DNA of 64,000 bases, taken from NCBI GenBank assembly GCA_964587005.1, contig CAZPJW010000003.1, positions 6,392-70,391 of the forward strand, written 5' to 3'. Below are positions 2,190 to 50,760 of this stretch, piece by piece. The position numbers and the translations under genes were made by a program. The notes beneath the pieces are model-generated. The model saw nothing but the letters and a program-made list of their open reading frames with translations. It did no database searches and was not told the DNA's origin. Position 1 is the stretch's first letter. Each line of letters starts with the position of its first letter. The stretch is from Candidatus Woesearchaeota archaeon (lineage in GTDB: Archaea > Nanobdellota > Nanobdellia > SCGC-AAA011-G17 > PNOQ01).

Positions 2190-5037
<2,848 letters not shown>

Positions 5038-5038
5038 A

Positions 5039-5578
5039 ATGAAAGAGAAAGTTTATTTTTTTGATTGGATGGAGACATTGGCCAATGTTCGTGCTAGTGA
5101 GAAAGAAATACTTACTCAGAGAGAGCATGAATTGCTGTTGGTGACCCCTTTTGAAGAAGTTGAGTTTTCTGAAGGAAGGGCGGAAATTGTTCATGATTTC
5201 CTTACCGGAGTTGAACATTTCTTATATTCTGATAGTGTTGATGTTATGTCAAGATTGAAGGAAGAAGGATATCGTTTGGGGATTGTTTCTGATATGTATG
5301 ATTTAACAGAGGAGATTGTTCGAAGAGAGTTTAGTGATTTTATTGGAATGTTTGATGTTTTTGTGACATCTGTGGGGGCAGGATTTGCTAAGCCATCTCC
5401 AAATATATATTTATCCGCAATTAATCAGTTGAATGAAAAAACAGGCATCTATACTCTTCCTGGACAGATTACTATGGTGGGAGATAGTGAGAGAAGAGAT
5501 ATTGATCCAGCTTCTAGACTGGGTATGCAAGCAAGATTAATTGACAGATCTTATCAAGGTTTGGAGGAAGTTTTTTAG
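5039..5578 (+). CDS. HAD-superfamily hydrolase (subfamily IA-like, degenerate motif I)
   Basis: Motif I FFDWMETL has the nucleophile Asp but the second Asp is replaced; motif II IVSD, Lys in FAKPSP, motif IV VGDSERRD. Confidence 0.5.
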   Translation: MKEKVYFFDWMETLANVRASEKEILTQREHELLLVTPFEEVEFSEGRAEIVHDFLTGVEHFLYSDSVDVMSRLKEEGYRLGIVSDMYDLTEEIVRREFSDFIGMFDVFVTSVGAGFAKPSPNIYLSAINQLNEKTGIYTLPGQITMVGDSERRDIDPASRLGMQARLIDRSYQGLEEVF

Positions 5579-5582
5579 ACAA

Positions 5583-6170
5583 ATGATAAAAGCAATTGTT
5601 TTTGATTTGGCCGGGGTGTTGATGGATATTGGAGGCATATCTGACAGTTTTAATAAACTGTGTAATAGATATGGTAAAGATGATGTTGTTCCTTGGCGAG
5701 ATTTTAGAGAGGAATGGAATAAAGTTAAATTGGATGAAATTAGTTGTGAAGATTTTTATAAGGTGATTGCTAGAAAACTAGAAATTGATTTTGAAGAAGT
5801 AAAACGGACATTCTCAAATATAGAGGTAGATAAAGAAATGAAAGAGCTTGTTTTAAAATTATTAGAAAGTTATAAAATAGGTATTCTTTCAAACACAACG
5901 AAAGATATATTAAGAGAATTGTTGAAAATTTGGGATTTAAATGCAGTTGCGAAAGTGACTACTTCGTGTTATGATAAAGTTAAGAAACCAGATACAGAAG
6001 CTATTGATTTAATCATTAAGAAATTGAATGTTGAAAAAGATGAAATTATTTTTATCGATGATAAGCTTGAAACTATTGAAACATATTCGGAATATGGAAT
6101 TAAATGTATAAAATTTGATAGTAAAGAACAGTTAGTTGAGGATTTAAAAAAATTTGGAGTTGAAGTATGA
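5583..6170 (+). CDS. HAD-superfamily hydrolase (dehalogenase/phosphatase-like, DxA motif I)
   Basis: [13 protein letters not shown] motif I, ILSNTT motif II, KKPD lysine, FIDDK motif IV; the ORF track start at 5541 is probably an N-terminal over-extension. Confidence 0.55.
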
Positions 6171-9114: not shown

Positions 9115-9387
9115 TCAATTATTAAGAGACCTATACCACTCAGAGAATTCTTTTCTTTTCTTTTGGGAGAGCATTGTTGAAATTGGTTTGTATGAGAAGA
9201 CTATCCCAACCGCCCCGAAAAAAATAGTTATTGCTGCGGGCAAGTAGCCTATTTCTTGTTGTTCTGTTGGGTTTTTTATTTTTGGAGCAGAAAGTAATGT
9301 ATTCTCTAATTTATTAGCTTCTGTAAATCTGGGCGAACTAAGTGTTAAAGTTGAAATTAGAAGAGTGTTGTATAGTTTATTTTTCAC
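9115..9387 (-). CDS. Hypothetical small membrane/secreted protein
   Basis: N-terminal hydrophobic segment and a central TM helix ([14 protein letters not shown]); no recognisable domain. Confidence 0.3.
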
Positions 9388-10616
9388 ATTAACTCACCGT
9401 AACCAATTAATCTCCAACGTGCACCAAGCATTCTTGCGATTGTTATTCTTTCGTTTTTGAATGCGCAAACTGGTTTTTTTAGTTTGAGTTTTATAGAATC
9501 TTTTTTTAGTTCTGTTACTGTTCCTACTGTTGCCGTTGAATTTACATTAAGCATTAAGATTTCGTTCATTTTTATTGGTTCAACTACTAATTCATCTTTT
9601 GAACCTACAACTCTTTCTAGTAATGTTTGTTTTAAATTAAGTTCTTCTAAAGTTTCTGGCATTTTTCCGTGTAAACCAGCTACATTTCCAACTAATGAAT
9701 CTGATTTTACTAATGTTGGGTCTAGTTTTGTTTGGATTCCTGCAGAACCTCCAGGAGTTATTTCTGAAACTTCTTGGTTTCCGGTAATTAGAGATTCAAT
9801 TTGAGTTTGTATTGGTTCCCAGATTATTTTATTTTGTTTTTCTGTTTTTATTCCAGGTTTTATTTCAATTAAATCTCCTTTTTTTAATATTCCCGTTTTC
9901 ATTGCTCCACCTAAAACTCCACCCTTTAGACCTTTTATTACGGTTCCAGGTTTGTTGATGTCAAATGATCTTGCTACTAAGAATAAAGGATCTTTTTTTT
10001 GGTCTCTTTCTGGAGTCGGGAATGTTTCTTGTATTGTTTTGATTAGGACGTCAATGTTTATTTTGTGTTGAGCAGAAATAGGTATTATTGGCGAATCTTC
10101 ATAATTTGTTCCTTTTAGAAATTCTTTAATTTGTTTGTAGTTTTCTAAAATTTTTTCTTTATCTACTAAATCTATTTTATTTTGTATAATTATTACATTT
10201 TTTACTTCAGCTATTTCTAATGCCATTAAGTGTTCTTTTGTTTGTGGTTGAGGGCATTCTTCTGTTGCCGAAACCATTAATAATGCTGCATCCATGATTG
10301 CTGCTCCAGAAAGCATTGTTGCCATTAGTGTTTCGTGGCCAGGAGCATCTATGAATGAGACTTTTCTTAGTGGGATAAATTTTGGTTTTTTTTCTACTGT
10401 ATAACATTCTGGATCTTTTTTATCTGGATCTTTATAGAATGTAGTGTCTGCGTATCCTAATTTTATTGTGATTCCTCTTTTTAATTCTTCAGAATGAACG
10501 TCTGTCCATTTTCCGGACAAAGCTTGTGTTAAGGTGGTTTTTCCGTGGTCAACATGTCCAACTAATCCTATACTAATTTCTGGTTGTAATTCTTTGGTTT
10601 CATTTTTCTTAGGCAT
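9384..10616 (-). CDS. eif2g: Translation initiation factor 2 subunit gamma (aIF2γ)
   Basis: G-domain [21 protein letters not shown]; the zinc-knuckle region and domains II/III typical of aIF2γ. Confidence 0.9.
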
Positions 10617-11173: not shown

Positions 11174-11244
11174 ATTTTCAAATTAGAATTCTTTATTTAT
11201 AACTATTTGTAATTTTTAATTAGGGGCAAGAATCACTTCTTCTT

Positions 11245-11700
11245 TTACTTTGGTTCCTCTTTAGGAGCTTCTTTTACTTCTTCAGTAGGTTTTTCTTCTG
11301 ATTTTGTTTCTTCTGCTGGAGCTTCGGGTTCTTTTTCTAAGCCTAAAACTTTTGGAAGAGTATCTTTACCGTATTTTTCAACCTTTAAATTTATTTGAGA
11401 AATTGATTCATCAATAGTATTTCCATGCATTGTTTTTCTTTGTTGCATTCCTTTGACTTTGTTTTTTACTCCAATGCCAGAAACGACTAAGGGTCTTTTT
11501 CTTCCAATTCCAGGAATATCGGATCTCATTGGAAAACCTTGTTTATCAGATCCTCCTGTTATTGTGAATTCATAACCTTTGAAACCAAATTCGTCACCAG
11601 AGATTTTTTCTCCGATTTTTTTATTTAAGAATATATCTGATTCTACTTCTTTCTTATATGATTTTTTTGCTTTTACATCGTTTATTGTTAGTTTGAACAT
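11245..11700 (-). CDS. rps6e: 30S ribosomal protein S6e with an EPK-rich C-terminal tail
   Basis: ITGGSDKQGFPMR and GMQQRKTMHGNTI conserved S6e motifs; the C-terminal EKEPEAPAEETKSEEKPTEEVKEAPKEEPK tail is low complexity. Confidence 0.8.
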   Translation of the reverse strand: MFKLTINDVKAKKSYKKEVESDIFLNKKIGEKISGDEFGFKGYEFTITGGSDKQGFPMRSDIPGIGRKRPLVVSGIGVKNKVKGMQQRKTMHGNTIDESISQINLKVEKYGKDTLPKVLGLEKEPEAPAEETKSEEKPTEEVKEAPKEEPK

Positions 11701-11703
11701 TTT

Positions 11704-13443
11704 TTACATACCCCACGTTGGATTTTCATTTCTTTTGATTTCGGCGATTTCTTTTAACAATTGGGTCTCTGATTCATTTAAATACTTTTTCATTAGTTTT
11801 TTAAGCTTTTTGAAGTCTCCTTGTGGAATATCTGAGTATAAAATATCATTTTCCTTGATTTGTCTGCCACAAGTTATGTTTGGTAAGGAAATAGCGACTT
11901 CTTTGCCTTGTTTTGCTTCTTGCACAGTTTCTTTATTGTCTTGTATTTCTTTTAGCTCGGTTAGTTTTTTTCCTTTTGATGTCATTAAAGGAGTTCCAGC
12001 TCTTGCTGTTCCTATTAATATATCTACTCCAACTACAGCAGGATTTAACTGTCTAAAAACACATCCGGGCATAATTTTTAGTTTGAAAGGTTTTACTAGG
12101 TCTTGAAATTCTTTTTCTTCTAATGATTTTGATGTTGTGTCTAAGTGTTTTGTAACATCATCGATTATTTTATAGATTATGTTGTTTGTAATTATTTTTA
12201 CTTCTTTAGATTCTTCTAAAACTTTTATGTTGAAACCAACTACTGTTTTGTTTAGTGGGTCTTCGTTTGAAGAAGCTTCTGCAATGTCGTTTTTTGTTAT
12301 ATTTCCGATTGCTGCCTTTTTTATTTTTATGTTTTTATCTTTTAATAATGAGATTAATGCTTCTAAAGAACCAAGAGTGTCTGCTTTTGCTATAATTCCT
12401 TCGTTGTCTGTGTCTATTGTGACTTCATCTATTTCTTGTTGAAGTTCTTTTATTATTTCTTTTTCATTTTCTTTATTTGAAACTCTTAATGGCATTCCGG
12501 GAATTGCTTCTTCTAAATTTGGTGAAGAAATTTTTATTCCTGCTGATGCATGTACTTCTTTTTTTTCTGTTAGTTTCGATTTTTCATATTTGAATAAACA
12601 TTTTACTTTTGTTTTTATTGGTTCATTTAAAGTTCCAATTACAATATTATCATTTTGTTTTATCTTTCCATCGTAAATTACTACATCTAGTGTTTTTCCA
12701 ATTCCTTTTTCTTCTGTTACTTCTAGTATTGTTCCTTTTGCAGGTTTTTCTAGATCTGTTTCTAAAGAAGATTCTAAGAATTTTTGAGCTAGCCCGGAAA
12801 TTACCATAAGCAATTCTGGTAAGCCATCTTTTGTTTTTGCAGAACAAGGGATTATTGCTACTTGTTTTGTGTAATCTTGTAATCTGTCAAATCTTTCTGA
12901 TTGTAGGCCGTGTTCGTGTAGAGTTTGAACTATTTTGTATAATTTTGTTTCGATATCAGTTGTTACATAATCTTGTTGATCTTTGATATTTTGCAAGATT
13001 GGTTTTTTTGGATCTGAAATAAATCCTCCAGATCTGTCTATTTTATTTGCTGCTACTACGAATGGAGTTTTTGAGTTTTTTAGAATTTCAATAGCTTCTA
13101 GTGTTTGAGGTTTTGCACCTTCGTTCATATCAATAACTAGGATTGCGATGTCTGCTATATTTCCTCCCCTTTTTCTTAGGGTTGTGAAAGCTTCGTGCCC
13201 AGGGGAGTCTATGAATAAAATTCCTGGAATTGTTAAGTTAATATTTTTTAATAAATCTCCACAGGTTTGTTTTATTTTATTTAGTTCTATTGAATGTGCT
13301 GTGATGTTTTGAGTTATTCCTCCGGCTTCTTTGTCTGCCACAGATGTCTCTCTAATTGAGTCTAGAATACTTGTTTTTCCGTGGTCTACGTGTGCTAATA
13401 ATACACATATTGGTTGTCTTAGCATTTTCTTAATATTAGGCAA
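11704..13443 (-). CDS. infB: Translation initiation factor IF-2 (aIF5B)
   Basis: AHVDHGKTSILD, DSPGHEAF, NKID G-motifs followed by β-barrel domains; 579 aa. Confidence 0.9.
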   Translation of the reverse strand: MPNIKKMLRQPICVLLAHVDHGKTSILDSIRETSVADKEAGGITQNITAHSIELNKIKQTCGDLLKNINLTIPGILFIDSPGHEAFTTLRKRGGNIADIAILVIDMNEGAKPQTLEAIEILKNSKTPFVVAANKIDRSGGFISDPKKPILQNIKDQQDYVTTDIETKLYKIVQTLHEHGLQSERFDRLQDYTKQVAIIPCSAKTKDGLPELLMVISGLAQKFLESSLETDLEKPAKGTILEVTEEKGIGKTLDVVIYDGKIKQNDNIVIGTLNEPIKTKVKCLFKYEKSKLTEKKEVHASAGIKISSPNLEEAIPGMPLRVSNKENEKEIIKELQQEIDEVTIDTDNEGIIAKADTLGSLEALISLLKDKNIKIKKAAIGNITKNDIAEASSNEDPLNKTVVGFNIKVLEESKEVKIITNNIIYKIIDDVTKHLDTTSKSLEEKEFQDLVKPFKLKIMPGCVFRQLNPAVVGVDILIGTARAGTPLMTSKGKKLTELKEIQDNKETVQEAKQGKEVAISLPNITCGRQIKENDILYSDIPQGDFKKLKKLMKKYLNESETQLLKEIAEIKRNENPTWGM

Positions 13444-15387: not shown

Positions 15388-17022
15388 ATGGATAAAAGTG
15401 AGTTAAAGAGATATGTTTTGGATAATGCGGTTTTGTATAAAGGCAAGGCAAATTTGAAAGCAGTTGTTGGACATTTAATTGGAAAGTTTCCAGAAGTAAA
15501 AAAAGATATGAAGAATTTTATGAAAGATTTAAGGAAAGTTGTTGATGAAGTTAATTCTCTAGATTTTGAGAAACAAAAGAAGGAATTAGAAAAATTAGGA
15601 AAAGTTGAGAAAATTAAGAAAGAAGTTAAATTATTTGATTTTTTGAGGGTAAAAAAAGGAGAGAAAGTTATTACTGCTTTTCCTCCAGAACCAAGTAAAT
15701 ATTTACATATTGGTCATGCAAAGTCTATTTTTTTGAATTATTTGTTAGCTAAAGAATATAAGGGAAAGTTTTTTTTGAGATTTGAAGATACTAATCCAGA
15801 ATTGGTTGATAATGAATTTTATGATATCATTTTGGAGGACATTAAATGGTTAGGAATCAAACCAGATAAAGTCCAGTATGCTTCTGATAATATGGATTTG
15901 TTTTATGGGTTTGGAGAGAAGTTGATTAAAAGTGGAGATGCTTATGTTTGTTATTGCACATCTAATACAATTAGAGATAATCGGATGAAAAAGAATGAAT
16001 GTTCTTGTAGATATGTTGATTTAAAGAAAAATTTAGAAAATTGGAAGGGTTTTTTTAAAGCTAAGGAAAAAAGTTGTGTTGTTCGTTTGAAGGGAGATAT
16101 GAAAAGCAAGAACGGGGTTATGAGAGATCCCACTATTTTTAGAGTTATTAATAAAAAACATCCTAGGACGGGTAATAAATATAGAATTTGGCCAACTTAT
16201 GAATTTCAAAATTCTGTTATGGATGGTCATTTTAAAGTTAGTTATAGGTTAAGGGGAAAGGAATTTGAAGCAATGTCAGAGTTGCAGAAATATTTACAAA
16301 AATTACTTGGATTCAAACTAACTAAGACTTATGAATTTGCTAGATTTAATATGAAAGGAATTTTGAGTTCGGGTAGAATTATCAGAGAGAAGATTTCTAA
16401 GAAAGAATTGATCGGTTGGGATGATCCAAGGCTTACTACTTTGGTTGCTTTACGTCGGAGAGGATTTTTACCTGAAGCAATTAAAGATTTTGTTGTTTCT
16501 ACTGGGATTTCAAAAAGTGAAAGTACTATGACTTGGGATGATTTGATTATTAAGAATAGAAGATTGATTGATGATGTTGCTAATAGGTATTTTTTCATTG
16601 CTAAACCTAAGAAAGTTAAGATAAAAGGTTTTTCTGAGAAAAGTATTTCTGCACCATTACACCCGGATCATCTAGGTCGGGGGAATAGGAAGTTGAAAGT
16701 TAGTGATGATTTTTATGTTGAAGATAGTTTGAAGAAAAATAAGAATTATCGATTTATGCATTTATTTAATTTTAAAGATAAAGAGATTGTTTCTGAGGAG
16801 TTTGATAAAGATTTGAAGGCTCAGTTGTTACATTGGTTGCCAGTTTCTAATGATTTGGTTAAAGTTAAAATTTTAATGGATAATGGGAAGTTTGTTAATG
16901 GAATTTGTGAGCCGGATGTTAGTAAATTGAAAGTGGGGGATTTAGTTCAGTTTGTTAGATTTGGTTTTTGTAGGCTGGATAAGAAAGGAAAAGTTTTGGA
17001 GTTTATTTTCACACATAAGTGA
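15388..17022 (+). CDS. gltX: Glutamyl-tRNA synthetase (archaeal/eukaryal type)
   Basis: Class I HIGH motif (LHIGHAKS), a KMSKS-like segment (KISKKEL) and an archaeal-type N-terminal extension. Confidence 0.9.
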   Translation: MDKSELKRYVLDNAVLYKGKANLKAVVGHLIGKFPEVKKDMKNFMKDLRKVVDEVNSLDFEKQKKELEKLGKVEKIKKEVKLFDFLRVKKGEKVITAFPPEPSKYLHIGHAKSIFLNYLLAKEYKGKFFLRFEDTNPELVDNEFYDIILEDIKWLGIKPDKVQYASDNMDLFYGFGEKLIKSGDAYVCYCTSNTIRDNRMKKNECSCRYVDLKKNLENWKGFFKAKEKSCVVRLKGDMKSKNGVMRDPTIFRVINKKHPRTGNKYRIWPTYEFQNSVMDGHFKVSYRLRGKEFEAMSELQKYLQKLLGFKLTKTYEFARFNMKGILSSGRIIREKISKKELIGWDDPRLTTLVALRRRGFLPEAIKDFVVSTGISKSESTMTWDDLIIKNRRLIDDVANRYFFIAKPKKVKIKGFSEKSISAPLHPDHLGRGNRKLKVSDDFYVEDSLKKNKNYRFMHLFNFKDKEIVSEEFDKDLKAQLLHWLPVSNDLVKVKILMDNGKFVNGICEPDVSKLKVGDLVQFVRFGFCRLDKKGKVLEFIFTHK

Positions 17023-20369: not shown

Positions 20370-20762
20370 TTAAGCTTTTTCTTTTAGAACTAAATACGCT
20401 ATGATTAAAACCCCAATTACATTAAATGAGTCTGCTATATTAAAAATTGGCCAAACTTGTAAATCTATGAAATCTCTAACATAACCTAATGAAACTCGGT
20501 CTATTAAATTTCCAATTGTTCCTCCGAATAAAAAAGCTAAAGGAATTCTTAGATTTTTTTCTTTTTTTGCTAAGAAAAATATAAAAATTGCTACTAGGAA
20601 TGAGATTATTGTTAATAGAAATGTTTGATTTTGTAGTATTGAGAAGGCTGCTCCGGTGTTTGTTGTGTAGTTTATGAATAAAAAATGCTTATTTGTGAAT
20701 AAGTCTTTTGTTAGTTGATCTAGGAAGATTATTAATATTGAAATTAGGAGGAATTTTTTCAT
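20370..20762 (-). CDS. lspA: Lipoprotein signal peptidase (signal peptidase II, LspA-like)
   Basis: Conserved LspA blocks NTGAAFS, GGTIGNLIDR, GYVRDF and IFNIADS (catalytic Asp positions) across 4 TM segments. Confidence 0.75.
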   Translation of the reverse strand: MKKFLLISILIIFLDQLTKDLFTNKHFLFINYTTNTGAAFSILQNQTFLLTIISFLVAIFIFFLAKKEKNLRIPLAFLFGGTIGNLIDRVSLGYVRDFIDLQVWPIFNIADSFNVIGVLIIAYLVLKEKA

Positions 20763-41015: not shown

Positions 41016-41053
41016 TTCCAAACTTTTAAATTCCTTTGTGTTGTATTAATAAT

Positions 41054-41800
41054 ATGGATTATTCAAGGCAAGAGTTGGTTATTGGAAAGAAAGCTCAAAA
41101 ACAATTAGAAAAGTCTAAAGTTGCTGTTATTGGAGTTGGAGCACTAGGCAGTTTGACTTCTGAATTATTAGTTCGCGGCGGAGTAAAGAAATTAATTCTT
41201 TTTGATAGAGATTTTGTTGAAATGAGTAATTTACAGAGACAACATTTGTATAAACTAGATGATGTGAATAAACCCAAAGTTAAGGTTGCTAAGAAACATT
41301 TGAAGGAAATTAACCCAGATGTTTCTATAAAAGGACATTTTGAAAGTTTGACTGCAAATAATATAAAAAAATTAAAAAAAGTTGATTTAATCTTAGATTG
41401 TACAGATAATATGCAAACTAGATTTTTGTTGAATGATTTCTGTGTTAAAAATAAAATAAATTGTGTTTTTGCTTCTGCTATTCAAGAAAAAGGATATGTT
41501 TATGTTTATGTTCCTAAGAAGGCCTGTTATAGTTGTATTTTTTCTGGTTTGAAATCGATAGACTCATGTGAAACCTTGGGGGTCTTAAATGGGATTAGTT
41601 CTTTAGTTTCTAGTTTACAAGTTAGTGAAGCTATAAAATTATTAATTGGAAAAAAGGCTGAAGAGGGTTTGATTCATGTTAATTTGGGGAAAAATGAGTT
41701 TAATAAAATAAAAGTTGAAAAGAGAAAAGATTGTAAAGTTTGTAAAGGAAAATTTGATTATTTAGAAGGGAAAATAAATAAAGATTTATGCGGAAGGTAA
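41054..41800 (+). CDS. E1-like ThiF/MoeB/UbaA-family adenylyltransferase with C-terminal CxxC pairs
   Basis: Rossmann GxGxxG (VIGVGALGS), DRDFVEMSNLQRQHLY, and CYSC plus CKVCKG zinc motifs. Confidence 0.8.
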   Translation: MDYSRQELVIGKKAQKQLEKSKVAVIGVGALGSLTSELLVRGGVKKLILFDRDFVEMSNLQRQHLYKLDDVNKPKVKVAKKHLKEINPDVSIKGHFESLTANNIKKLKKVDLILDCTDNMQTRFLLNDFCVKNKINCVFASAIQEKGYVYVYVPKKACYSCIFSGLKSIDSCETLGVLNGISSLVSSLQVSEAIKLLIGKKAEEGLIHVNLGKNEFNKIKVEKRKDCKVCKGKFDYLEGKINKDLCGR

Positions 41801-42013
41801 TTTTTCCATTGTATCTTCTAAGGAGTTGTGTTTTTGAGGATGGTTTGGGGTTTCTGGTAGTTTTTCGGCGTATAATGATAAATGTGTAATTCGTTTCCAT
41901 AAGTAAGGTATTAATCCCAGTGAATTTATCTCATGATGTTTTAGGCGTTCCAGGGAAAGATAATCTTCTCTCAGAAATGCTAACTTTGTTATTGGAATTA
42001 TTTCAGCTGCCAT
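41786..42013 (-). CDS. Hypothetical small protein immediately downstream of the GGDEF gene
   Basis: 75 aa; one-nt gap from the GGDEF ORF stop, suggesting co-transcription. Confidence 0.25.
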   Translation of the reverse strand: MAAEIIPITKLAFLREDYLSLERLKHHEINSLGLIPYLWKRITHLSLYAEKLPETPNHPQKHNSLEDTMEKLPSA

Positions 42014-42014
42014 T

Positions 42015-42587
42015 TTATGAAACTACCCTATTTCTGCCCCTTTCTTTAGCTTTATAGAGTTTTTCATCTGCAGATTTGTATAATTTTTCTATATCTGGTT
42101 TTTCTTTTGGTTTAAAATTTGATAATCCTATACTTATTGTAATTTTTTCTTTATTTTTGTAGAACTTTTGTATTGATTTTCTTAGTCTTTCTGCTACTTT
42201 TTTTGAATTTTTTTTATTTGTGTTTGGAAGTATTACTGCGATTTCTTCTCCACCATATCTTCCAATACTTTTTCCAGGGATATCGGTATCTCTGATTTGG
42301 GTTTTTAGTAGTTTTGAGATTTGTTTTAGGACTTCGTCTCCTTTATCATGCCCGTATGTGTCGTTTATTTTTTTGAAATGGTCTATGTCTATGAAAAGTA
42401 AAGATGCTTCTTGCTTTAGTTTGTAGGATCTATTTAGAACTTTTTTGAAGATTTCATCGAATGTTTCTCTTCTTAGTAAATTTGTTAGTTTGTCATACTT
42501 TGCTTTCTTTTTCCATATGATTAATTGTTGTTTTAGCTTTTTGTTTTCTACTTTTAGCTCTTCATTTCGTTTTTCTAATTTTTTCAT
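42015..42587 (-). CDS. GGDEF-domain protein (putative diguanylate cyclase) with an N-terminal coiled coil
   Basis: GGDEF-domain blocks RRETFDE, LLFIDIDHFKKINDTYGHDKGDEVL and RYGGEEIAVIL (GGEEI variant of GG[DE]EF); N-terminal leucine-zipper-like helix. Confidence 0.7.
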   Translation of the reverse strand: MKKLEKRNEELKVENKKLKQQLIIWKKKAKYDKLTNLLRRETFDEIFKKVLNRSYKLKQEASLLFIDIDHFKKINDTYGHDKGDEVLKQISKLLKTQIRDTDIPGKSIGRYGGEEIAVILPNTNKKNSKKVAERLRKSIQKFYKNKEKITISIGLSNFKPKEKPDIEKLYKSADEKLYKAKERGRNRVVS

Positions 42588-42640
42588 AGATTTATTTTAG
42601 AAAGAGCATATTTAAAGTTTATTAAAAAAAGAAAAAAAGG

Positions 42641-43291
42641 TTAAGAATTTAGTTCTTGTTCTATTAGTTGTTCAAAAGCACCAAATGGTTGTGCACCCGA
42701 TAAAGGAATTCCGTTTATGAAAAATGCTGGTGTTCCTCTTACTCCTGCTGCTGAACCATCTCGTAGGTCTTTTTGTACTTCGTCGTAGTTTTTTCCAGAG
42801 TCAAGACAATCATTAAATTCAGTTGTGTCTAATCCTATTTGAGAGGCGTATTGTTTAAAGGACTCAACACCCTGAGATACTCCTGACTCGAAAAGTTTGT
42901 CGTGCATTTCATAGTATTTCCCTTGGTCTCCTGCGCACTCTGCTGCTTCTGCTGCTTTTTGTGCGTTTCGATGACTACTTAATGGGAAATCTCTATAAGC
43001 GAATTTGACCTTTCCTGTGTCAATATATTTTTCTTCTATTAATTTTAGTGTTTGTGAATAGAATCTTGCACAGTAAGGACATTCGTAATCAGAAAATTCT
43101 ACGATTGTTACTGGAGCATTTGAATCTCCTTTTATAGTATCATCATCTAAAGATACTTGTACTCTTTGTACTACTTGTTCTTCTTGTATTGTATTTCCAG
43201 TTTGACTTGTTTCATTTGAATTTATAAAAAAGGTTGCTACTAACAATATTGCTAAAACTCCTACAGTTATCTTTAATCCTTTGTTTTTCAT
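42641..43291 (-). CDS. DsbA-like thiol:disulfide oxidoreductase (secreted/anchored)
   Basis: N-terminal TM/signal, then a thioredoxin fold with the CPYC active site (FSDYECPYCARF). Confidence 0.7.
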   Translation of the reverse strand: MKNKGLKITVGVLAILLVATFFINSNETSQTGNTIQEEQVVQRVQVSLDDDTIKGDSNAPVTIVEFSDYECPYCARFYSQTLKLIEEKYIDTGKVKFAYRDFPLSSHRNAQKAAEAAECAGDQGKYYEMHDKLFESGVSQGVESFKQYASQIGLDTTEFNDCLDSGKNYDEVQKDLRDGSAAGVRGTPAFFINGIPLSGAQPFGAFEQLIEQELNS

Positions 43292-43433: not shown

Positions 43434-43844
43434 ATGGTACCATTGTTAGAATTAGAAACTCCCGAGGCGATCTTTAGAAATGATATGCGTGGAGAAGGTC
43501 ATTTCTTTATTGATTGTAGTTGTGGTGGCATGGATGGAAGCTATTCTGGGTTTCATTATAAAAATACTGCCGATGAGGCAACTCATCGGGCAGATCATTA
43601 TGATGCAAGTGAGGAAAGCGATGCAAAAGAACATACTTTCTATATTGGCGAATTATTCTTCCTTATGGCTTTAGAGGCACAAGAGGAAGAGATGGGAGAT
43701 AAACCATTAGTTGTAGTATGTAATGATTGTCAAAGAGAATTTCCATTTACTTTAGACTCTTATGAGGAGTTAAATGAAAGAATGCGGGCAGAATATAGTC
43801 GTAGAGTGTTTGAAAAGGACCATCCCTCAGGCCAATCCAAATGA
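43434..43844 (+). CDS. Hypothetical acidic protein with CxC...CxxC motifs
   Basis: 136 aa; IDCSCGG ... VVCNDCQ; GC-richer than its neighbours. Confidence 0.3.
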   Translation: MVPLLELETPEAIFRNDMRGEGHFFIDCSCGGMDGSYSGFHYKNTADEATHRADHYDASEESDAKEHTFYIGELFFLMALEAQEEEMGDKPLVVVCNDCQREFPFTLDSYEELNERMRAEYSRRVFEKDHPSGQSK

Positions 43845-44099
43845 TTCTACGAATTTTGTTATTTGAGTATAACCACTTAGATAATTAAAACCTTTTTCAG
43901 TTAAAGAATAAGTTTTTCCTTTTTCATTTTTTAATTCGTTAATAAAACCTTTTCCGATTAGTTCATCTAAATATTGTTGCATCATTTGATGAGATAGGTT
44001 TGACTTGTAAAGAATGTGCGTGGGCTTTATTTTCTCTCCCTTATCCCTGATAACCTCCAGAATGTCATAAATGATCTGGAGTCTGTCTCGCTTTTTCAT
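43827..44099 (-). CDS. Small winged-helix DNA-binding protein
   Basis: 90 aa; predicted wHTH (THILYKSNLSHQMMQQYLDELIGKGFINE); 3' end overlaps the start of 43434–43844 and the start overlaps the upstream membrane-protein stop. Confidence 0.45.
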   Translation of the reverse strand: MKKRDRLQIIYDILEVIRDKGEKIKPTHILYKSNLSHQMMQQYLDELIGKGFINELKNEKGKTYSLTEKGFNYLSGYTQITKFVESFGLA

Positions 44100-44758
44100 T
44101 TCTTAAACACCATGATTAAATTGAGTAGGATGAGCACGTAACTTGCTAATTCGAGGTAATGCCCAATTACATAAAATAGACTATGGTTTATCGAAAATAT
44201 GAAGTGAACATCACTTAAGAAAAGAAGCAAGAATGCTATGAATACTAAAAATGTGTTGAATTGTTTTTTTTCTATAAAATTTTTCAAGTAATGATGTGAG
44301 ATGAAAAGTAAATATGTTGAAGAAATTATGAAAAATGTGTAAATTGGATCTTTTCCTAAATAAATTGGCAAGATTGAAATTAGGGCCAAAAGTAAAAATA
44401 TTTTTATGTTTCTTGGCTTTAGAGTTATTAAAATTATTAAAATTAGTCCTAATAACATGAAAATCATGTGGGTATATAGTGCATTTAAGCCCAAGTTAAC
44501 AACCTGACTTACTTGTTGCAGAACGTCTACATTTTGACTTAATTCAAATAATATCCCGATGTTTAAAATTGACTGAACGAAATATGATGCCGAAAATAAT
44601 AGGAAGGCCATACCAAATAAAACTGCAGATTTCTCCCTGGATGCTTTATATATTTTAAATGAATATAGTGAAACGAATAGAGTTATTATAGCAAAAGCTA
44701 ATTCAAAGATAATGCTTTGATTAAAGAACCAGTTCGGACAAAACCCTAAAGATACCAT
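44096..44758 (-). CDS. Integral membrane protein (about 6 TM)
   Basis: Highly hydrophobic; translationally coupled with the downstream wHTH gene. Confidence 0.35.
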   Translation of the reverse strand: MVSLGFCPNWFFNQSIIFELAFAIITLFVSLYSFKIYKASREKSAVLFGMAFLLFSASYFVQSILNIGILFELSQNVDVLQQVSQVVNLGLNALYTHMIFMLLGLILIILITLKPRNIKIFLLLALISILPIYLGKDPIYTFFIISSTYLLFISHHYLKNFIEKKQFNTFLVFIAFLLLFLSDVHFIFSINHSLFYVIGHYLELASYVLILLNLIMVFKK

Positions 44759-45718: not shown

Positions 45719-45916
45719 TTATCCTCCAGAAATAACTGAAAGGAATTTTAATTCATCGTTTTCTTTTAATTTTGAGGTTTCTGTTACTAAGGCATTATTT
45801 TTTATTATGATAACTTCTTCTAGATTTATGCTTAGCTTTTCGGCTGCTTCTTTTATTGAGGAAACGTTTATTTGTTTTTTTATGTCGTTTCTTTCGTCGT
45901 AAACTTTTATTTTCAT
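45719..45916 (-). CDS. Ubiquitin-like small archaeal modifier (ThiS/MoaD fold, C-terminal Gly-Gly)
   Basis: MKIKVYDERNDIKKQINV...ELKFLSVISGG; a β-grasp-length peptide ending in GG; the ORF track start at 45949 is an over-extension. Confidence 0.6.
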   Translation of the reverse strand: MKIKVYDERNDIKKQINVSSIKEAAEKLSINLEEVIIIKNNALVTETSKLKENDELKFLSVISGG

Positions 45917-46821
45917 TTTATTTGTTTTATTAGTTTGCAGGTTTGGCATTCTTCTTTTGATGAAGGTTCACCACAGGTTTTGCAATATTTTATTTTCCCT
46001 TTTTTATAATTTTCTTTTAGTAGTGGAAGTATTTCTATAAATGAGTTTATTATTGAATGTTTTGATGAAGGGTATTTTTTGTCTAGATTGTTTATTAGTT
46101 TCCTAATTTCATCTCTGTATGCGTTCTTTGCATAGGGGCATTCATTGTAATCTGATGAAAGGTTTTTTAGATAGGCATATGTCATAATTTCTTTTTCGGT
46201 TAGAAAATATAATGGTTTTATTCTTCTTATGAACTTTTTATCTTTTTTTATTCCAGTTATTGGTCCTAGTCTTGCTGAAGCGGCTACATTGTTTCTGAAT
46301 TGGTTCATTAAGATAGATTGGGCCTCATCATCTAGATTGTGACCGGTTGCAAGAACATCAAATTTTAATCTTTGAGCTAAACTATTTAATAGGTATCTTC
46401 TGAAAACCCCACATACCGAACAAGGCAGAATTTTATTCTTTTTAAGGATTTGATCAAGAGTTTTTCCAAATTCTTTTTTATATGAAGTTGTTTTTAATGG
46501 AATTTTTAGTTCTTTGCAAACTTTTTTTGCGAATTTTATTGTTTCATCTCTGTAACCTTTTATTCCTTCATCGATTGCTATTGCAGTTAATTTTGTTGTT
46601 TTTTGAGGTTTGGTTATTTGATTTAGAACGTAAAGTGTTGTTAGGGAATCTTTTCCTCCAGAAACTGCTATTCCTATATGTTGTCCTTTTTTGAAAAGTT
46701 TATACTGTCTGATTGTTTTTCTGACTTTTCTTTCAAAGTATTTTATGAAGCAAGTTTTACAAAGAGAGATATTACTATTTGGAAGCTTAATTACTGGTTT
46801 TAGTTTACAATTTTTGCACAT
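45913..46821 (-). CDS. ncsA: tRNA 2-thiolation PP-loop ATPase (NcsA/Ncs6/TtcA family)
   Basis: N-terminal CKNC...CKTC zinc finger, PP-loop SGGKDS, C-terminal CKTCGE...CQTC zinc finger. Confidence 0.8.
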   Translation of the reverse strand: MCKNCKLKPVIKLPNSNISLCKTCFIKYFERKVRKTIRQYKLFKKGQHIGIAVSGGKDSLTTLYVLNQITKPQKTTKLTAIAIDEGIKGYRDETIKFAKKVCKELKIPLKTTSYKKEFGKTLDQILKKNKILPCSVCGVFRRYLLNSLAQRLKFDVLATGHNLDDEAQSILMNQFRNNVAASARLGPITGIKKDKKFIRRIKPLYFLTEKEIMTYAYLKNLSSDYNECPYAKNAYRDEIRKLINNLDKKYPSSKHSIINSFIEILPLLKENYKKGKIKYCKTCGEPSSKEECQTCKLIKQIK

Positions 46822-46874: not shown

Positions 46875-47789
46875 TTAACAGCTTCCTGATGCTGTCCCTT
46901 GTGTGTCATCTAGTACTTCATCACAAATTCCTGGTGCGTTGTTAAATCCAGAACAGATTGCTGTTTTTATTCCGTCTTGTGTTCTTGCAGGACTTATTTT
47001 AACACCGTTTAGGAAAAATGTTGGTGATCCTCCAACTCCATTTTCATCTGCGTAGACAACATTTTCACTTAATAGATCTGAACCTTCGTTGTTGAAACAG
47101 TCTAATATTATTGTTGCGTCTATTCCAACTTGTTCTGCACATGTTCCCCAGATTGTGTCTAGATTTCTATAATCTTCTGCCACACATAGCAAATAGTCGA
47201 AATATTTTTCTGGGTAATTTTTCTCTACACATAACTGTCTTATATTTCCATCAACTTCAGGTTGTCCGTGTAGACTACTAAATGTTCCGTCTCCATTATC
47301 ATTTGCAATAAATCTTAGATTGAACTCAATATCATCTCCGAACAATTCTACCACCGGAAATGTGATTTCTTCTGCTTGTGTACCATATGGACATTGAGAC
47401 ATTACATATAGATCCAGAACTGGTTTGTCTGTTTTTGGTACGTTTGCTGGTGCTGGAGGTTCGGGTTTATCTTCTTGCTCAACTTCTTTTAGTTCTACTA
47501 ATGGTTGGACAAGATATTCTCCAGATTTTGTTATGTACAAGAATTGCGGTGCGCCATTTAGAGTTACGGGTACTTTATATAGGCCACCTTCAGTAATAAC
47601 GTCTCCAGTTATTTCTGCTTGCGTTCCTTCTTGCAATATTTCCATGTTAATAAATTCAATGGCATCCTTTGCTACCATATTGCCAGTTTTGAATGATAGG
47701 CCACAACCAGAGGTTGCAGTAACAAAGACAAATATGATTAGAATGGCAAAAGTACTAATTTTCCATTTGTTTAATTTTTTTTCTGTCAA
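46875..47789 (-). CDS. Secreted lipoprotein-like protein with a C-terminal thioredoxin-like (CPYG) domain
   Basis: Signal plus TSGC lipobox; the C-terminal LDLYVMSQCPYGTQAE resembles DsbA/thioredoxin-like folds. Confidence 0.45.
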   Translation of the reverse strand: MTEKKLNKWKISTFAILIIFVFVTATSGCGLSFKTGNMVAKDAIEFINMEILQEGTQAEITGDVITEGGLYKVPVTLNGAPQFLYITKSGEYLVQPLVELKEVEQEDKPEPPAPANVPKTDKPVLDLYVMSQCPYGTQAEEITFPVVELFGDDIEFNLRFIANDNGDGTFSSLHGQPEVDGNIRQLCVEKNYPEKYFDYLLCVAEDYRNLDTIWGTCAEQVGIDATIILDCFNNEGSDLLSENVVYADENGVGGSPTFFLNGVKISPARTQDGIKTAICSGFNNAPGICDEVLDDTQGTASGSC

Positions 47790-47835: not shown

Positions 47836-48567
47836 TTAAATCTTTCGTATATTTTTCAAAACTATTATTGAGATTATAAATAACGGAATTGAAATCCATT
47901 GTCCATAAGTTAGTCCTGAAAAAATTACTTGGTCTTTGAAAAATTCTATTATAAATCTAAATAGAGAATAGAGTGCTATGAACATCCAGAAGATAACTCC
48001 GCGCTTTATATTTTTAACTTTGTAGAAGTTTAAGAGAATTATGAAAATGAAAAAATTCTTTATTGATTCGTATATTTGTGAAGGATGTCTTAGTCCTTCT
48101 AGATTATCATAATATATCCCCCAGGGAACGTTTGTTATTCTTCCAGGAAATTCTTGGTTAAGGAAGTTTCCTATTCTTCCTAGACTTAATCCTAATGCTA
48201 AAGGAATAACGATTATGTCTGCTATGTCGTAGAAATGTATTTTATATTTTTTACAGAAGAAATATGTTCCTATTATTGCTCCGAGTAAACCCCCATGAAA
48301 AGCCATTCCTCCTTGCCAGATGTAAAATACCCTTAGTAGATTATCTTGGTATAAATGGAAGTTGAGTATTACTGCTAAAAGTCTTGCTCCAATTATGCTG
48401 CTTGGAATTAAATAAACAAAATAATCATAGATTTGTTGTTTTGTTATATTTCTCTTTTTTGCAAGTTTTATTGAGATTGGGATTGCTATTAAGAAACCTA
48501 GGGCGAATATTATCCCATACCAATGTATCTGTAATGTTCCTATTGTGAATGCTATTGGATCAATCAT
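47836..48567 (-). CDS. lgt: Prolipoprotein diacylglyceryl transferase (Lgt-like)
   Basis: Lgt signature blocks: IHWYGIIFALGF, IGARL, WQGGMAFHGGLLGAI, GRIGNFLNQE, VPWG; multi-TM. Confidence 0.8.
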   Translation of the reverse strand: MIDPIAFTIGTLQIHWYGIIFALGFLIAIPISIKLAKKRNITKQQIYDYFVYLIPSSIIGARLLAVILNFHLYQDNLLRVFYIWQGGMAFHGGLLGAIIGTYFFCKKYKIHFYDIADIIVIPLALGLSLGRIGNFLNQEFPGRITNVPWGIYYDNLEGLRHPSQIYESIKNFFIFIILLNFYKVKNIKRGVIFWMFIALYSLFRFIIEFFKDQVIFSGLTYGQWISIPLFIISIIVLKNIRKI

Positions 48568-48637: not shown

Positions 48638-49084
48638 TTGATGATATGTGTAATTGCAATGGTTGTTTTTGGAGTAATGGCAATATTTTCTGCGAGTCAT
48701 AGGCCGTTAGCGAAAGAAGCATTTGATTGTGTTTTTAGAAGAATTACTTTGAGGAGTTGTCAATCTGGTTTGGATGTTAAATTGAAAGCTAAATTGGTTG
48801 GTAGTTTAATGAGGAAGAATTCTAAGTTTGCCAGGCCCGTGTATAAACATTTTGAAATGGTTTCTTGGATATTTGTCATTATTTTCTTTGTAAGTTTAGT
48901 TTATTCGGGAGTATCTGTTTATAATTTAGCTGTGCATGATAATTGTGCTGGCCCAGATGCAGATCCAGAAGAATGTATTTTTGTTCCTAATAATGAAGCA
49001 GTAAGTTGTGGCGATCCTTTATGTGAATCTGGAGAATGTGAAGTTTGTGGAGAAGTATGTGGTTGTCATGAGTGTGAAGGTTAA
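48638..49084 (+). CDS. Membrane protein with a Cys-rich C-terminal domain
   Basis: Two TM helices, then CAGPDADPEECIF...SCGDPLCESGECEVCGEVCGCHECEG. Confidence 0.3.
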   Translation: MMICVIAMVVFGVMAIFSASHRPLAKEAFDCVFRRITLRSCQSGLDVKLKAKLVGSLMRKNSKFARPVYKHFEMVSWIFVIIFFVSLVYSGVSVYNLAVHDNCAGPDADPEECIFVPNNEAVSCGDPLCESGECEVCGEVCGCHECEG

Positions 49085-50760
49085 TCTCTTAAATTTACTC
49101 TGATTTGGTCTGCTCTTTCTTTCATTAATTCTTTGTGCTTTTTTTTATCATAGGTCGGGTCAAATGGAATAATTTTTGAACAATGGGTTTTGTCTGGACA
49201 GAACCCAATATAACCACATTTTGGAACCACTAATCCGGCCATATGATCTGGGAAGTCAGGTGAACCAGTAATTAATTTCATTTCTCTTTCTGTTAAATCT
49301 TGCATTTCGGGTTCTGCATGATTACATAGTCTTAAAGATGCGTATCCAGATGTTAGGTTATATAGGTCCCATTTTTTTGTAACTCCAACTTTCATTCCTC
49401 TTGGAACCACCGCTATTGCATCACTTTTTGGAATTCCCATCTCAATTAAAGCGTTATATGTTCTTACAGACTCATAAATTCTATCTCTCCAAAGTTTGAA
49501 GTTATCTTCATCAGATTCTACTGAAGCTGGAACGGAGGAAATTGACTTGAGCATGCCGAAATCCAGTAAGCCGGAAGACAACATTTTGTTTGCTCTTTCT
49601 AAAGCATCGTAAATGGACTCTACTGTTTGTGGCATTGTCCTATGTCTTTTTACTTCTCCCCAAACTCTCCAAGGAGTATTTGTAGCAGTTACTGCATCAA
49701 ATTCTGTATTGTGGTCATGGATAATATTGTCTAATTCTTTTAGTATGTTTCTCCACCCCCTTCTTATGTCCCCAGGCTCTCTAAATAATTCTTCTCTTCT
49801 TTCTAGATATGCTTTTACTCTTCTTTCTAGATCTTTTGTTGGAGTACTTGTTAGGGATAATAAAGCAGGTTCGTAAAGTGCATTTTTTTCGTTTTCTTCC
49901 ATAATTTCGTGAGCGTGATTCGTTCTTGAATGGAATAATTCTGGATTTGGACATCCAGTTCTTGCTGCTGCTTTTCTTGCTTCGTAAGTTATGCCCATTC
50001 CCCTTCCGTGAATGATTTTTTCTAATTCCGATAGAATTTCTAGCCCTTCCTTTGGGATTGATTCTTTATCCGCATCTGCACGAATTTTTAAGTTAATTAT
50101 TGTTTCTAGTGGGAAGAAAGCTTCTCCTCCTCCTCTTAAACCATATTGAACTATTTTGCTTGCTACTTGTTTTGGAACGCCATTGGCTTTTAGAGTTTCA
50201 TGTGCTTGAATATTTGATCGAGACGTGTTTAAGTATAAATCTAAGGCTTCTCCCCCCATATCTGCTATTGACTCAGGAACTAGTATTTGTTCTTTTTCAA
50301 TTGGAATTCTTCTTCCAGAAGGCATTAGTGCGCTCATGAATCTTGCACCGGTGAACAGGGAGTCAACAAATTTTGAAGTGTTTCCTTCAAGATAAACCCA
50401 TAATCCCGGGTTTGTTGCAATTGAAGCATGCCCTGCCCCAGCGGAAGCTATTAGGCCAGCGGTAACTTTCTCTGTGAAATCTTGTTCCATCATTTGTTCC
50501 ATTAATTCACCCATTACTCCGGTGTCTTTGTAAGTGATTAGAGAAGCTAGTTGGCCAATTTCATCTGGATTAATAGAATTGTGAATGCTTAATTCTGATT
50601 CAGGGATTAGTATTTTTCCATCTTGAATAAACTCTTTTGGTAGAATTACATTTCCTGCTTTTGTTCTCTTTACTTCTGCTGTTAATTCTCTTTTTAGAAC
50701 TTTTTCAGGACCATATCCCAGCAAGGTAACTTTTGGATCGATAACTTTTATTTCTGACAT
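49081..50760 (-). CDS. Large hypothetical protein (559 aa); weak ThyX-like N-terminus and an RHR motif, family unresolved
   Basis: N-terminus IKVIDPKVTLLGYGPEK resembles ThyX openings and there is an RHRTMPQTVES segment, but the ThyX SxNExSxRY continuation is missing and the protein is about twice ThyX length. Confidence 0.3.
   Translation of the reverse strand: MSEIKVIDPKVTLLGYGPEKVLKRELTAEVKRTKAGNVILPKEFIQDGKILIPESELSIHNSINPDEIGQLASLITYKDTGVMGELMEQMMEQDFTEKVTAGLIASAGAGHASIATNPGLWVYLEGNTSKFVDSLFTGARFMSALMPSGRRIPIEKEQILVPESIADMGGEALDLYLNTSRSNIQAHETLKANGVPKQVASKIVQYGLRGGGEAFFPLETIINLKIRADADKESIPKEGLEILSELEKIIHGRGMGITYEARKAAARTGCPNPELFHSRTNHAHEIMEENEKNALYEPALLSLTSTPTKDLERRVKAYLERREELFREPGDIRRGWRNILKELDNIIHDHNTEFDAVTATNTPWRVWGEVKRHRTMPQTVESIYDALERANKMLSSGLLDFGMLKSISSVPASVESDEDNFKLWRDRIYESVRTYNALIEMGIPKSDAIAVVPRGMKVGVTKKWDLYNLTSGYASLRLCNHAEPEMQDLTEREMKLITGSPDFPDHMAGLVVPKCGYIGFCPDKTHCSKIIPFDPTYDKKKHKELMKERADQIRVNLRD

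Follow-up and report, generated by a model that had tools for sequence, protein, structure and literature searches.

The 64,000-nucleotide (nt) stretch analyzed here, which we call the window, covers positions 6,392 to 70,391 of contig CAZPJW010000003.1 in an assembly of "Candidatus Woesearchaeota archaeon" (GCA_964587005.1), a DPANN archaeon, and is part of a 100,832-bp scaffold. On its minus strand, at 42015..42587, lies a gene for a 190-amino-acid (aa) protein made of an N-terminal coiled coil and a GGDEF domain, the latter typical of the diguanylate cyclases that synthesize cyclic di-GMP (c-di-GMP). This is a genuine archaeal gene for a minimal zipper-GGDEF protein, and we estimate a probability of about 70% that the protein of this Woesearchaeota-like DPANN archaeon, judged from its residues and predicted fold, is a diguanylate cyclase competent for catalysis.

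Signaling through c-di-GMP is regarded as essentially bacterial and archaeal GGDEF proteins as rare, a premise from which a previous, sequence-only reading of this locus started and which agrees with published reviews (PMC5847659, PMC10086821, PMC10249747). GGDEF proteins from archaeal metagenome-assembled genomes (MAGs) have been left open as possible contamination (Galperin et al. 2018, PMC5847659), a census of HD-GYP domains applied the same caution to archaeal HD-GYP proteins (bioRxiv 10.1101/2021.11.05.467447), and Romling (2022) wrote that archaeal GGDEF "needs to be confirmed in archaeal contigs" (PMC10086821). More than 300 BLAST hits for GGDEF, mostly from Asgard and DPANN archaea, were reported by Braun et al. 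(2021, PMC8646023). GGDEF annotations in DPANN MAGs are already known, and the enzyme type is ordinary; it is the host that is unusual. What this analysis adds is evidence that the gene resides in archaea and is passed on vertically, together with its archaeal promoter, its intact active site, a clade-specific insertion, and a companion open reading frame (ORF). The phrase "archaeal diguanylate cyclase" was not found in the literature searched.

A GGDEF gene within an archaeal genome

The ORF begins with ATG and has an in-frame stop immediately upstream, so no longer N terminus is possible. Its GGDEF domain (residues 29 to 187; 42027..42503, minus strand) matches PF00990 over the whole profile (positions 1 to 161 of 161) at E = 2.2e-45, with 154.8 bits against a cut-off of 23.8; this Pfam search was the profile check proposed with the sequence-only reading. 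The NCBIfam model TIGR00254, "diguanylate cyclase," is matched at E = 2.2e-49 and 167.4 bits (cut-off, 37.4). Since both scores lie far over their cut-offs and the motif blocks by which the domain had been recognized (RRETFDE, DIDHFKKINDTYGHDKGDEVL, and RYGGEEI) can all be read in the protein, the original assignment to the GGDEF family stands. The AlphaFold model, with a mean predicted local distance difference test score (pLDDT) of 82.7, consists of a single helix at residues 2 to 35 followed by a GGDEF fold. Used as a Foldseek query against the PDB, it matched WspR, DosC, GcbC, and PleD with E values down to 7e-16 and template modeling (TM) scores of 0.69 to 0.76; the top matches are active cyclases throughout, and the closest fold is that of 3i5c (TM, 0.76).

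The gene sits 42 kb into the window and has archaeal marker genes on both sides. One flank carries S24e, Rpb7/RpoE, S6e, aIF2-gamma, aIF5B, an archaeal-type GluRS, and L10e; the other carries RNase P p30 and Pop5, proteasome alpha, SBDS, Rrp4, and Rrp41. Beyond the window, the scaffold continues with Rrp42, RpoK, and S2 at one end and with Spt4, S27e, NAC, and Sec61-beta at the other. GC content is uniform over the window at ~0.32, and the GC content at third codon positions of the GGDEF gene (0.21) lies within the range of the housekeeping genes (0.17 to 0.27).

The locus was also recovered repeatedly. An identical protein with identical neighbors occurs on contigs of at least six assemblies, made independently from different samples, and the gene order Lgt, thiol reductase, TtuA, ThiS, the 220-aa membrane protein (TM220), HTH_45, DsbA, GGDEF, and convergent ThiF is kept at 85, 57, 51, and ~50% ortholog identity. 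An ortholog at 47% identity retains this order partially: the DsbA-like gene lies a few genes upstream, and the GGDEF gene is directly convergent with ThiF. A sister group of orthologs occupies a different location, directly downstream of LspA, on contigs that are equally archaeal. Relative to the 85%-identical ortholog, the ratio of nonsynonymous to synonymous substitution rates (dN/dS) is 0.096 for the GGDEF gene, 0.094 for DsbA, 0.065 for ThiF, and 0.059 for TtuA; being so close to the values of its neighbors, the ratio implies that the GGDEF gene co-diverges with them under purifying selection.

Transcription signals fit the same genome. An archaeal TATA-box-like element, TTTAAATA, is located at 42609..42616 (minus strand), 21 nt upstream of the ATG and with its first T at -29. 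The spacer between the DsbA-like gene and the ATG is 53 nt long and contains, ahead of this element, two runs of seven T residues that follow the stop codon of the DsbA-like gene (42624..42638, minus strand), resemble archaeal terminators, and may act as one, setting that gene apart from the GGDEF promoter. Each of the nine distinct orthologous loci examined has a TATA-like box 21 to 22 nt ahead of its ATG, although the sequence around it has diverged. TTTAWAWA boxes starting 29 to 31 nt before the ATG represent the modal layout in the window, where they precede 13 genes, including those for aIF2-gamma, GluRS, TtuA, Lgt, and LspA (examples are the genes at 9384-10616, 15388-17022, 45913-46821, and 47836-48567); a minority of genes, such as that for the DsbA-like protein, have GGAGG-like sequences instead. 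This spacing indicates that leaderless transcripts are likely to be common in the organism. With its box at the modal position, the GGDEF gene uses the ordinary promoter layout of its host, and its mRNA is probably leaderless or nearly so, given the start site that the box predicts.

These observations bear on the suspicion that the GGDEF gene was mis-joined or mis-binned into an archaeal contig, through bacterial contamination or chimeric assembly, which the sequence-only reading had named as grounds for refutation. Such an origin is the default suspicion for GGDEF and HD-GYP genes of archaeal MAGs (PMC5847659; bioRxiv 10.1101/2021.11.05.467447), and the nearest relatives outside the clade described below are indeed bacterial, at no more than 49% identity. 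The gene is nevertheless enclosed by archaeal-only markers, its junctions recur both in the independent assemblies and in orthologous loci of 47 to 85% identity, its divergence and dN/dS follow those of neighboring genes, its composition fits the rest of the genome, and in every ortholog examined the archaeal TATA box stands at a constant distance from the start codon. We regard contamination as effectively refuted and give it hardly any weight.

The archaeal proteins form a family of their own. When a profile of the clade was searched against a database of 5.8 billion proteins, 19 clusters stood apart, with full-length members scoring at least 279 bits and one fragment scoring 226, and the next match was a bacterial multidomain GGDEF protein at 180 bits. 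The clade, which is monophyletic in a neighbor-joining tree, includes proteins from "Candidatus Woesearchaeota archaeon" (MBS3172509.1, annotated by NCBI as a GGDEF domain-containing protein) and "Nanoarchaeum sp." (MBA4405597.1). When GTDB genomes were scanned with the alignment of the clade, the matches listed were all bacterial GGDEF proteins, at no more than 45% identity, and the scan is uninformative on archaeal carriers. Short proteins with a coiled coil and a GGDEF domain are found in bacteria too; one of them, P0071 of Thermodesulfobacterium commune, has 193 aa. Because the clade is monophyletic and shares a unique insertion (see below), a single acquisition followed by vertical descent is supported; the gene would have been acquired once from bacteria and then inherited vertically, under purifying selection, within a narrow archaeal lineage.

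Coiled coil, active site, and RxxD motif

The N-terminal coiled coil, predicted to be of the parallel-dimer type, covers residues 1 to 31 (42495..42587, minus strand) and runs on into the first GGDEF helix. Its heptads place L4, L11, L18, and W25 at d positions and M1, N8, N15, L22, and A29 at a positions; of the latter, Asn15 is kept throughout the clade. Such a heptad pattern with an a-position asparagine is typical of parallel dimeric zippers, e.g., that of GCN4. The PDB entry 3i5c is an engineered protein in which the GCN4 zipper is joined to the GGDEF domain of WspR, and HMMER aligns its zipper with residues 1 to 28 of the window protein. The leucine-zipper-like segment noted from the letters alone was borne out, both by the clear heptads at the sequence level and by the predicted helix. 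From the heptads and their conserved asparagine, we infer a constitutive dimer. The 190-aa protein has no receiver or other sensor domain, and the stop codon just upstream of the ATG leaves no space for one.

The same reference structure provides the closest parallel for the protein as a whole, since 3i5c aligns with archaeal residues 1 to 188 by sequence and superimposes by structure with the zipper included; the archaeal protein is a natural counterpart of this minimal design, without a sensor domain. More broadly, it has the fold and the catalytic, guanine-binding, and RxxD residues of bacterial cyclases with coiled-coil stalks (WspR, PleD, Caulobacter DgcB, and SiaD). It differs from them in being encoded by an archaeon under an archaeal TATA promoter and in lacking a receiver or sensor domain, and its clade differs in the spacing between RxxD and GGEE and in having I, M, or L rather than F after GGEE in most members.

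To assess residue conservation, ten clade members with identities down to about 47 to 48% were aligned. Invariant among them are D67, I68, and D69, which we take to be the metal site around PleD D327 (the numbering is self-consistent with the alignment spacing); K72; N75, presumably the guanine contact PleD N335; and R110, G112, G113, E114, and E115, which we equate with PleD R366 to E371, including the GGEE catalytic loop. K181 and R185, assumed to be the phosphate contacts PleD K442 and R446, are invariant as well. D84, which we align with the second guanine contact, PleD D344, is retained in 15 of 16 clade sequences and replaced by asparagine in one (P0010). The active-site (A-site) motif G112 G113 E114 E115 I116 (42240..42254, minus strand) thus has both acidic residues of GG[D/E]EF, the two metal-site aspartates D67 and D69 accompany it, and the full set of guanine and phosphate contacts (N75, D84, K181, and R185) is in place.

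The final isoleucine of the motif had been taken as a hint that the protein might be degenerate. This suggestion does not hold, as position 5 is I, M, L, or F across the clade and GGEEI also occurs in 30 of the 107 nearest bacterial matches; on the sequences compared, the residue is no sign of degeneracy. Invariance, or near invariance, of the catalytic and guanine-contacting residues also makes the two other options of the sequence-only reading, a degenerate receptor and a different nucleotide product, less likely.

The alignment check proposed for the A-site and the RxxD motif found the catalytic, metal, phosphate, and guanine residues and RxxD all present. The RxxD inhibitory-site (I-site) motif, R99 D100 T101 D102, is encoded at 42282..42293 (minus strand); R99, T101, and D102 are invariant in the ten-member alignment, and R99 and D102 presumably correspond to PleD R359 and D362. 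Between RxxD and RYGGEE, the alignment reveals a clade-specific insertion of four residues (approximately residues 103 to 106; 42270..42281, minus strand), which forms the sole segment of the AlphaFold model with a pLDDT below 50. RxxD and GGEE are separated by 9 residues in the window protein, by 10 in most relatives, and by 9 or 10 in all ten clade members, compared with exactly 5 in every one of the 106 nearest bacterial matches that could be scored; the same four-residue gap is visible in four of the five listed PDB sequence alignments.

A GGDEF fold might instead yield or bind something else, as in a Hypr-type cyclic GMP-AMP (cGAMP) synthase, a GdpP-like ATP-binding protein or ATPase, or a Cas10-like oligoadenylate cyclase. 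There are weak secondary matches to the Cas10 palm (E = 8e-8) and to the GdpP-type GGDEF (E = 6e-4), and P0010 has its asparagine at a guanine-contact position. The Hypr signature is reportedly a serine in place of the guanine-contact aspartate, equivalent to PleD D344 (Hallberg et al. 2016, cited in PMC10249747). At this position no clade sequence has serine, and in the window protein the guanine-specifying N75 and D84 are both present; a Hypr 3',3'-cGAMP synthase was rejected as a candidate. Cas10/Cmr2 palms and GdpP-type GGDEF domains are distant kin in the palm superfamily, scoring 33 and 20.5 bits, respectively, against 155 for GGDEF, so that the reassignment to a non-cyclase family that would have overturned the identification failed. 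A type III CRISPR cyclase was likewise discarded: the Cas10 match is ~120 bits weaker than that to GGDEF, TIGR02578 scores 26.6 bits against 170, the PADLOC match to Cas10 is partial (E = 2.7e-4), and there are no cas genes or other CRISPR context nearby. The GdpP-like model (PF24898) stays under its cut-off of 30 bits, and no DHH domain or DHH/DHHA1 context accompanies the gene. A role in defense was also set aside, since the sole PADLOC matches were weak ones to generic palm and winged-helix models and no defense-system profiles were found nearby. Taken together, a product other than c-di-GMP appears improbable, slightly more so than the inactive domain considered next.

Several observations weigh against a working c-di-GMP cyclase. 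Among window ORFs of at least 100 aa, a Pfam search of the 64 kb found no EAL, HD-GYP, or PilZ domain, and neither a further ~17 kb of the contig nor the precomputed annotations of related loci, ~100 kb in all, showed one. A six-frame motif scan for PilZ, HD-GYP, and MshEN returned one chance match, in a spurious ORF over a tRNA-Val gene; profile search and motif scan thus agree with the earlier remark that no EAL, HD-GYP, or PilZ partner is visible in the window. Neither the window nor six related loci contain a c-di-GMP riboswitch. Because no partner was seen in the regions searched, a complete signaling circuit is not demonstrated. Within the protein, RxxD is present at a spacing of 9 rather than at the canonical five residues upstream of GG[D/E]EF. 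With the 9- to 10-residue spacing of the clade, feedback inhibition may not operate as it does in PleD and WspR, and, given the clade-specific insertion, the usual I-site geometry should not be taken for granted; an RxxD I-site is dispensable for membership among cyclases. Finally, c-di-GMP has been detected in no archaeon to date (PMC10249747, PMC8646023), DPANN archaea not being among those assayed.

Some of these points would also be expected of a catalytically inactive GGDEF domain acting as a nucleotide receptor or protein interaction module, in the manner of LapD, PelD, and CsrD: neither a phosphodiesterase nor a receptor is seen as a partner, the last motif residue is I instead of F, and the insertion adjoins the active-site hairpin. 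Degenerate domains, however, typically lose GG[DE]E and the metal and phosphate ligands, and here these are invariant down to 47% identity. GGEEI is, as noted above, frequent among the nearest bacterial matches, and the regions examined encode no other cyclase, so a receptor would have no obvious source of ligand. We therefore consider an inactive domain unlikely.

A mechanism can be proposed for the active cyclase. Two chains would pair through the N-terminal parallel coiled coil, and this pairing would set the two GGDEF domains, each with GTP and Mg2+, face to face, allowing, as the intact active-site residues suggest, two GTP to be condensed to c-di-GMP. Because there is no sensory domain, output would depend chiefly on transcription, which would start from the archaeal TATA promoter of the gene itself and give a leaderless mRNA. 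The conserved RxxD motif possibly adds feedback by the product, with a geometry that is possibly altered by the insertion of four to five residues.

Companion ORF and neighboring genes

A 75-aa ORF follows the GGDEF gene at 41786..42013 (minus strand). As described in the sequence-only reading, it starts one nucleotide past the GGDEF stop codon, in the junction TAAaATG, which suggests that the two genes are translationally coupled. In a sister species (L013), a 78-aa ORF occupies the same place, with 59% identity, a conserved frame, and a dN/dS of 0.23, and small ORFs follow the GGDEF gene in three more lineages (L015, L106, and L020). The TAAaATG junction is common to the window, L015, and L106; L013 has TAAaaATG, and in L020 the small ORF lies 65 nt from the GGDEF gene and has its own TATA-like box. 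The ORF is absent from L018, L021, and the LspA-linked group. All five small ORFs share the N-terminal motif M[AT]x(E)I[IFYT][PSN]Ix[KD][LIVF][AQ], beyond which their sequences are unrelated. A search of 423,000 six-frame residues from the window and ten archaeal loci found no further copy of this motif, a result that is supportive only, since the motif was defined post hoc.

The 75-aa product is otherwise an orphan. It matched no Pfam family even at E values up to 10, a word-indexed search found only the protein itself, and phmmer, run exhaustively on 1.84 billion representatives, added one repetitive 1929-aa protein that we judged spurious. A single-sequence AlphaFold model predicts two helices (residues 8 to 26 and 34 to 50) in a generic hairpin followed by a disordered tail, and this model had no significant match in the PDB; these results speak neither for nor against a protein of the ribbon-helix-helix type. 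We regard the ORF as a real, fast-evolving companion that is probably co-translated with the GGDEF gene.

Directly upstream, at 42641..43291 (minus strand), lies a gene for a DsbA-like secreted protein with a thioredoxin fold (Thioredoxin_4, E = 2.6e-38; DSBA, E = 5.5e-20). It is in the same position in loci L001 to L006, L013, L015 to L017, and L020. The best NCBIfam match of its product is to the "Rcas_1661 family thioredoxin-like (seleno)lipoprotein," at 139 bits and below the cut-off of 190. A second gene resembling thiol reductases, with a GILT domain, is present at 46875-47789, and the pair suggests an extracytoplasmic disulfide system in this DPANN archaeon. The convergent neighbor on the downstream side (41036..41800, plus strand) encodes a ThiF-family E1-like enzyme (E = 3.4e-66) and is kept in L001 to L004, L014, L015, L020, L021, and L106.

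The window and every syntenic relative have, a few genes ahead of GGDEF, a pair encoding the 220-aa membrane protein and an HTH_45 winged-helix regulator (43827..44758, minus strand, in the window; HTH_45, E = 1.5e-20). The two genes overlap by 4 nt, and the membrane protein is multi-pass and without a Pfam family. They could be a membrane sensor and a regulator, a candidacy that rests on position.

Genes of bacterial-type lipoprotein maturation are also found in the window. Lgt (47836-48567, minus strand) matches PF01790 at E = 2e-73 and passes the TIGR00544 equivalog model at 186.7 bits (cut-off, 118.9); it is present in all syntenic relatives (L001 to L003, L013, L015, L018, L020, and L106). 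LspA, or signal peptidase II (20370-20762, minus strand), matches PF01252 at E = 1.6e-28 and scores 70.5 bits with TIGR00077, just under the cut-off of 73.95; it is encoded in L008 to L010 and L107 as well. Recent literature describes Lgt as having no archaeal homolog, and this DPANN lineage looks like an exception with respect to such genes. In the sister group represented by P0006 (L007 to L012), LspA is followed by the GGDEF gene and then by two small proteins bearing a lipobox; in L007 (10725-11620), the N termini of the small proteins resemble bacterial lipoprotein signal peptides, with lipoboxes ending in LLGGC and LTLAGC.

Further genes were noticed in the window, on its scaffold, and on a related contig. 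L107 encodes a 382-aa RpoD-like sigma-70 protein (11221-12369, plus strand) with Sigma70_r2, r3, and r4 domains and ~200 bits to the RpoD and RpoS models, below their equivalog cut-offs; the 75-kb contig that carries it also encodes archaeal L7Ae, S28e, L24e, and GluRS together with the LspA-GGDEF pair. Either the sigma-70 gene, too, was acquired from bacteria, or the contig is wrongly assembled. In the window, bacterial-type gyrB (3139-5037) and gyrA have two HAD-hydrolase genes between them (5039-6170), and a free-standing ORF resembling LAGLIDADG_2 homing endonucleases (2190-3158, plus strand; E = 4.5e-40) overlaps the start of gyrB. An unusually long 559-aa protein (49081-50760, minus strand) matches ThyX (Thy1) only over residues 350 to 496, its N-terminal 350 residues being without a family match. 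On the same scaffold, ~3 kb past the high-coordinate end of the window, an IS-type transposase of the DDE_Tnp_1 family (L102, 13833-14972, minus strand) and a patatin-like phospholipase adjoin the exosome/RpoK/enolase cluster.

Possible roles and significance

Among archaeal GGDEF proteins described previously, RCIX2274 of Methanocella arvoryzae (CAJ37382) has been listed as the only one of a complete archaeal genome (Galperin et al. 2018, PMC5847659; bioRxiv 10.1101/2021.11.05.467447). By description, this is a large REC-PAS-PocR-GGDEF-HD-GYP fusion from a methanogen, in contrast to the minimal zipper-GGDEF protein of a DPANN lineage, with its own 19-cluster family, reported here. MAGs of "Candidatus Micrarchaeum acidiphilum" encode WspR-like proteins with REC and an inactivated GGDEF domain, the archaeal origin of which was left open (PMC5847659). 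Although these are likewise DPANN associated and metagenomic, the window protein differs from them in its intact active site, its lack of REC, and the support of synteny and promoter.

The sole recurring functional theme around the GGDEF gene is the cell envelope, represented by the DsbA-like gene here and by LspA in the sister group. A link between c-di-GMP and the envelope is conceivable on this basis. The gene, presumably acquired from bacteria, neighbors envelope genes of bacterial type in this lineage and often has a small protein, probably coupled to it in translation, behind it.

One use of an active cyclase could lie outside the cell, with c-di-GMP released or transferred to manipulate a bacterial neighbor or host, DPANN archaea being thought to live attached to hosts. 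This would accord with the absence of an internal receptor or phosphodiesterase in ~80 kb and with linkage to secreted and envelope genes (DsbA-like, LspA, and the lipobox proteins of L007 to L012). Furthermore, one ortholog comes from the Tara 0.1- to 0.22-μm mesopelagic fraction, consistent with ultra-small cells. The case is purely inferential, however; internal receptors may exist elsewhere in the genome, and no exporter is linked to the GGDEF gene. We see such an external role as doubtful.

A broader proposal, somewhat less doubtful and still a long way from probable, is an archaeal c-di-GMP module. The cyclase and the coupled small protein would be a producer-effector pair that controls envelope machinery of the Lgt, LspA, and DsbA-like kind or delivers c-di-GMP to a partner organism, and its receptors would be unrelated to known ones. 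If true, a c-di-GMP pathway would operate in Archaea with receptors of a new kind.

The phyletic oddity of the gene was partly anticipated, and its description makes a stated open question on archaeal c-di-GMP directly testable. The bacterial-type envelope genes of this DPANN lineage, including Lgt, form a wider pattern into which the gene fits. For one lineage, the locus supplies the confirmation on archaeal contigs that reviews have asked for, and with it come a specific protein of 190 aa to assay for c-di-GMP synthesis and a circumscribed lineage in which receptors for c-di-GMP in archaea can be sought.

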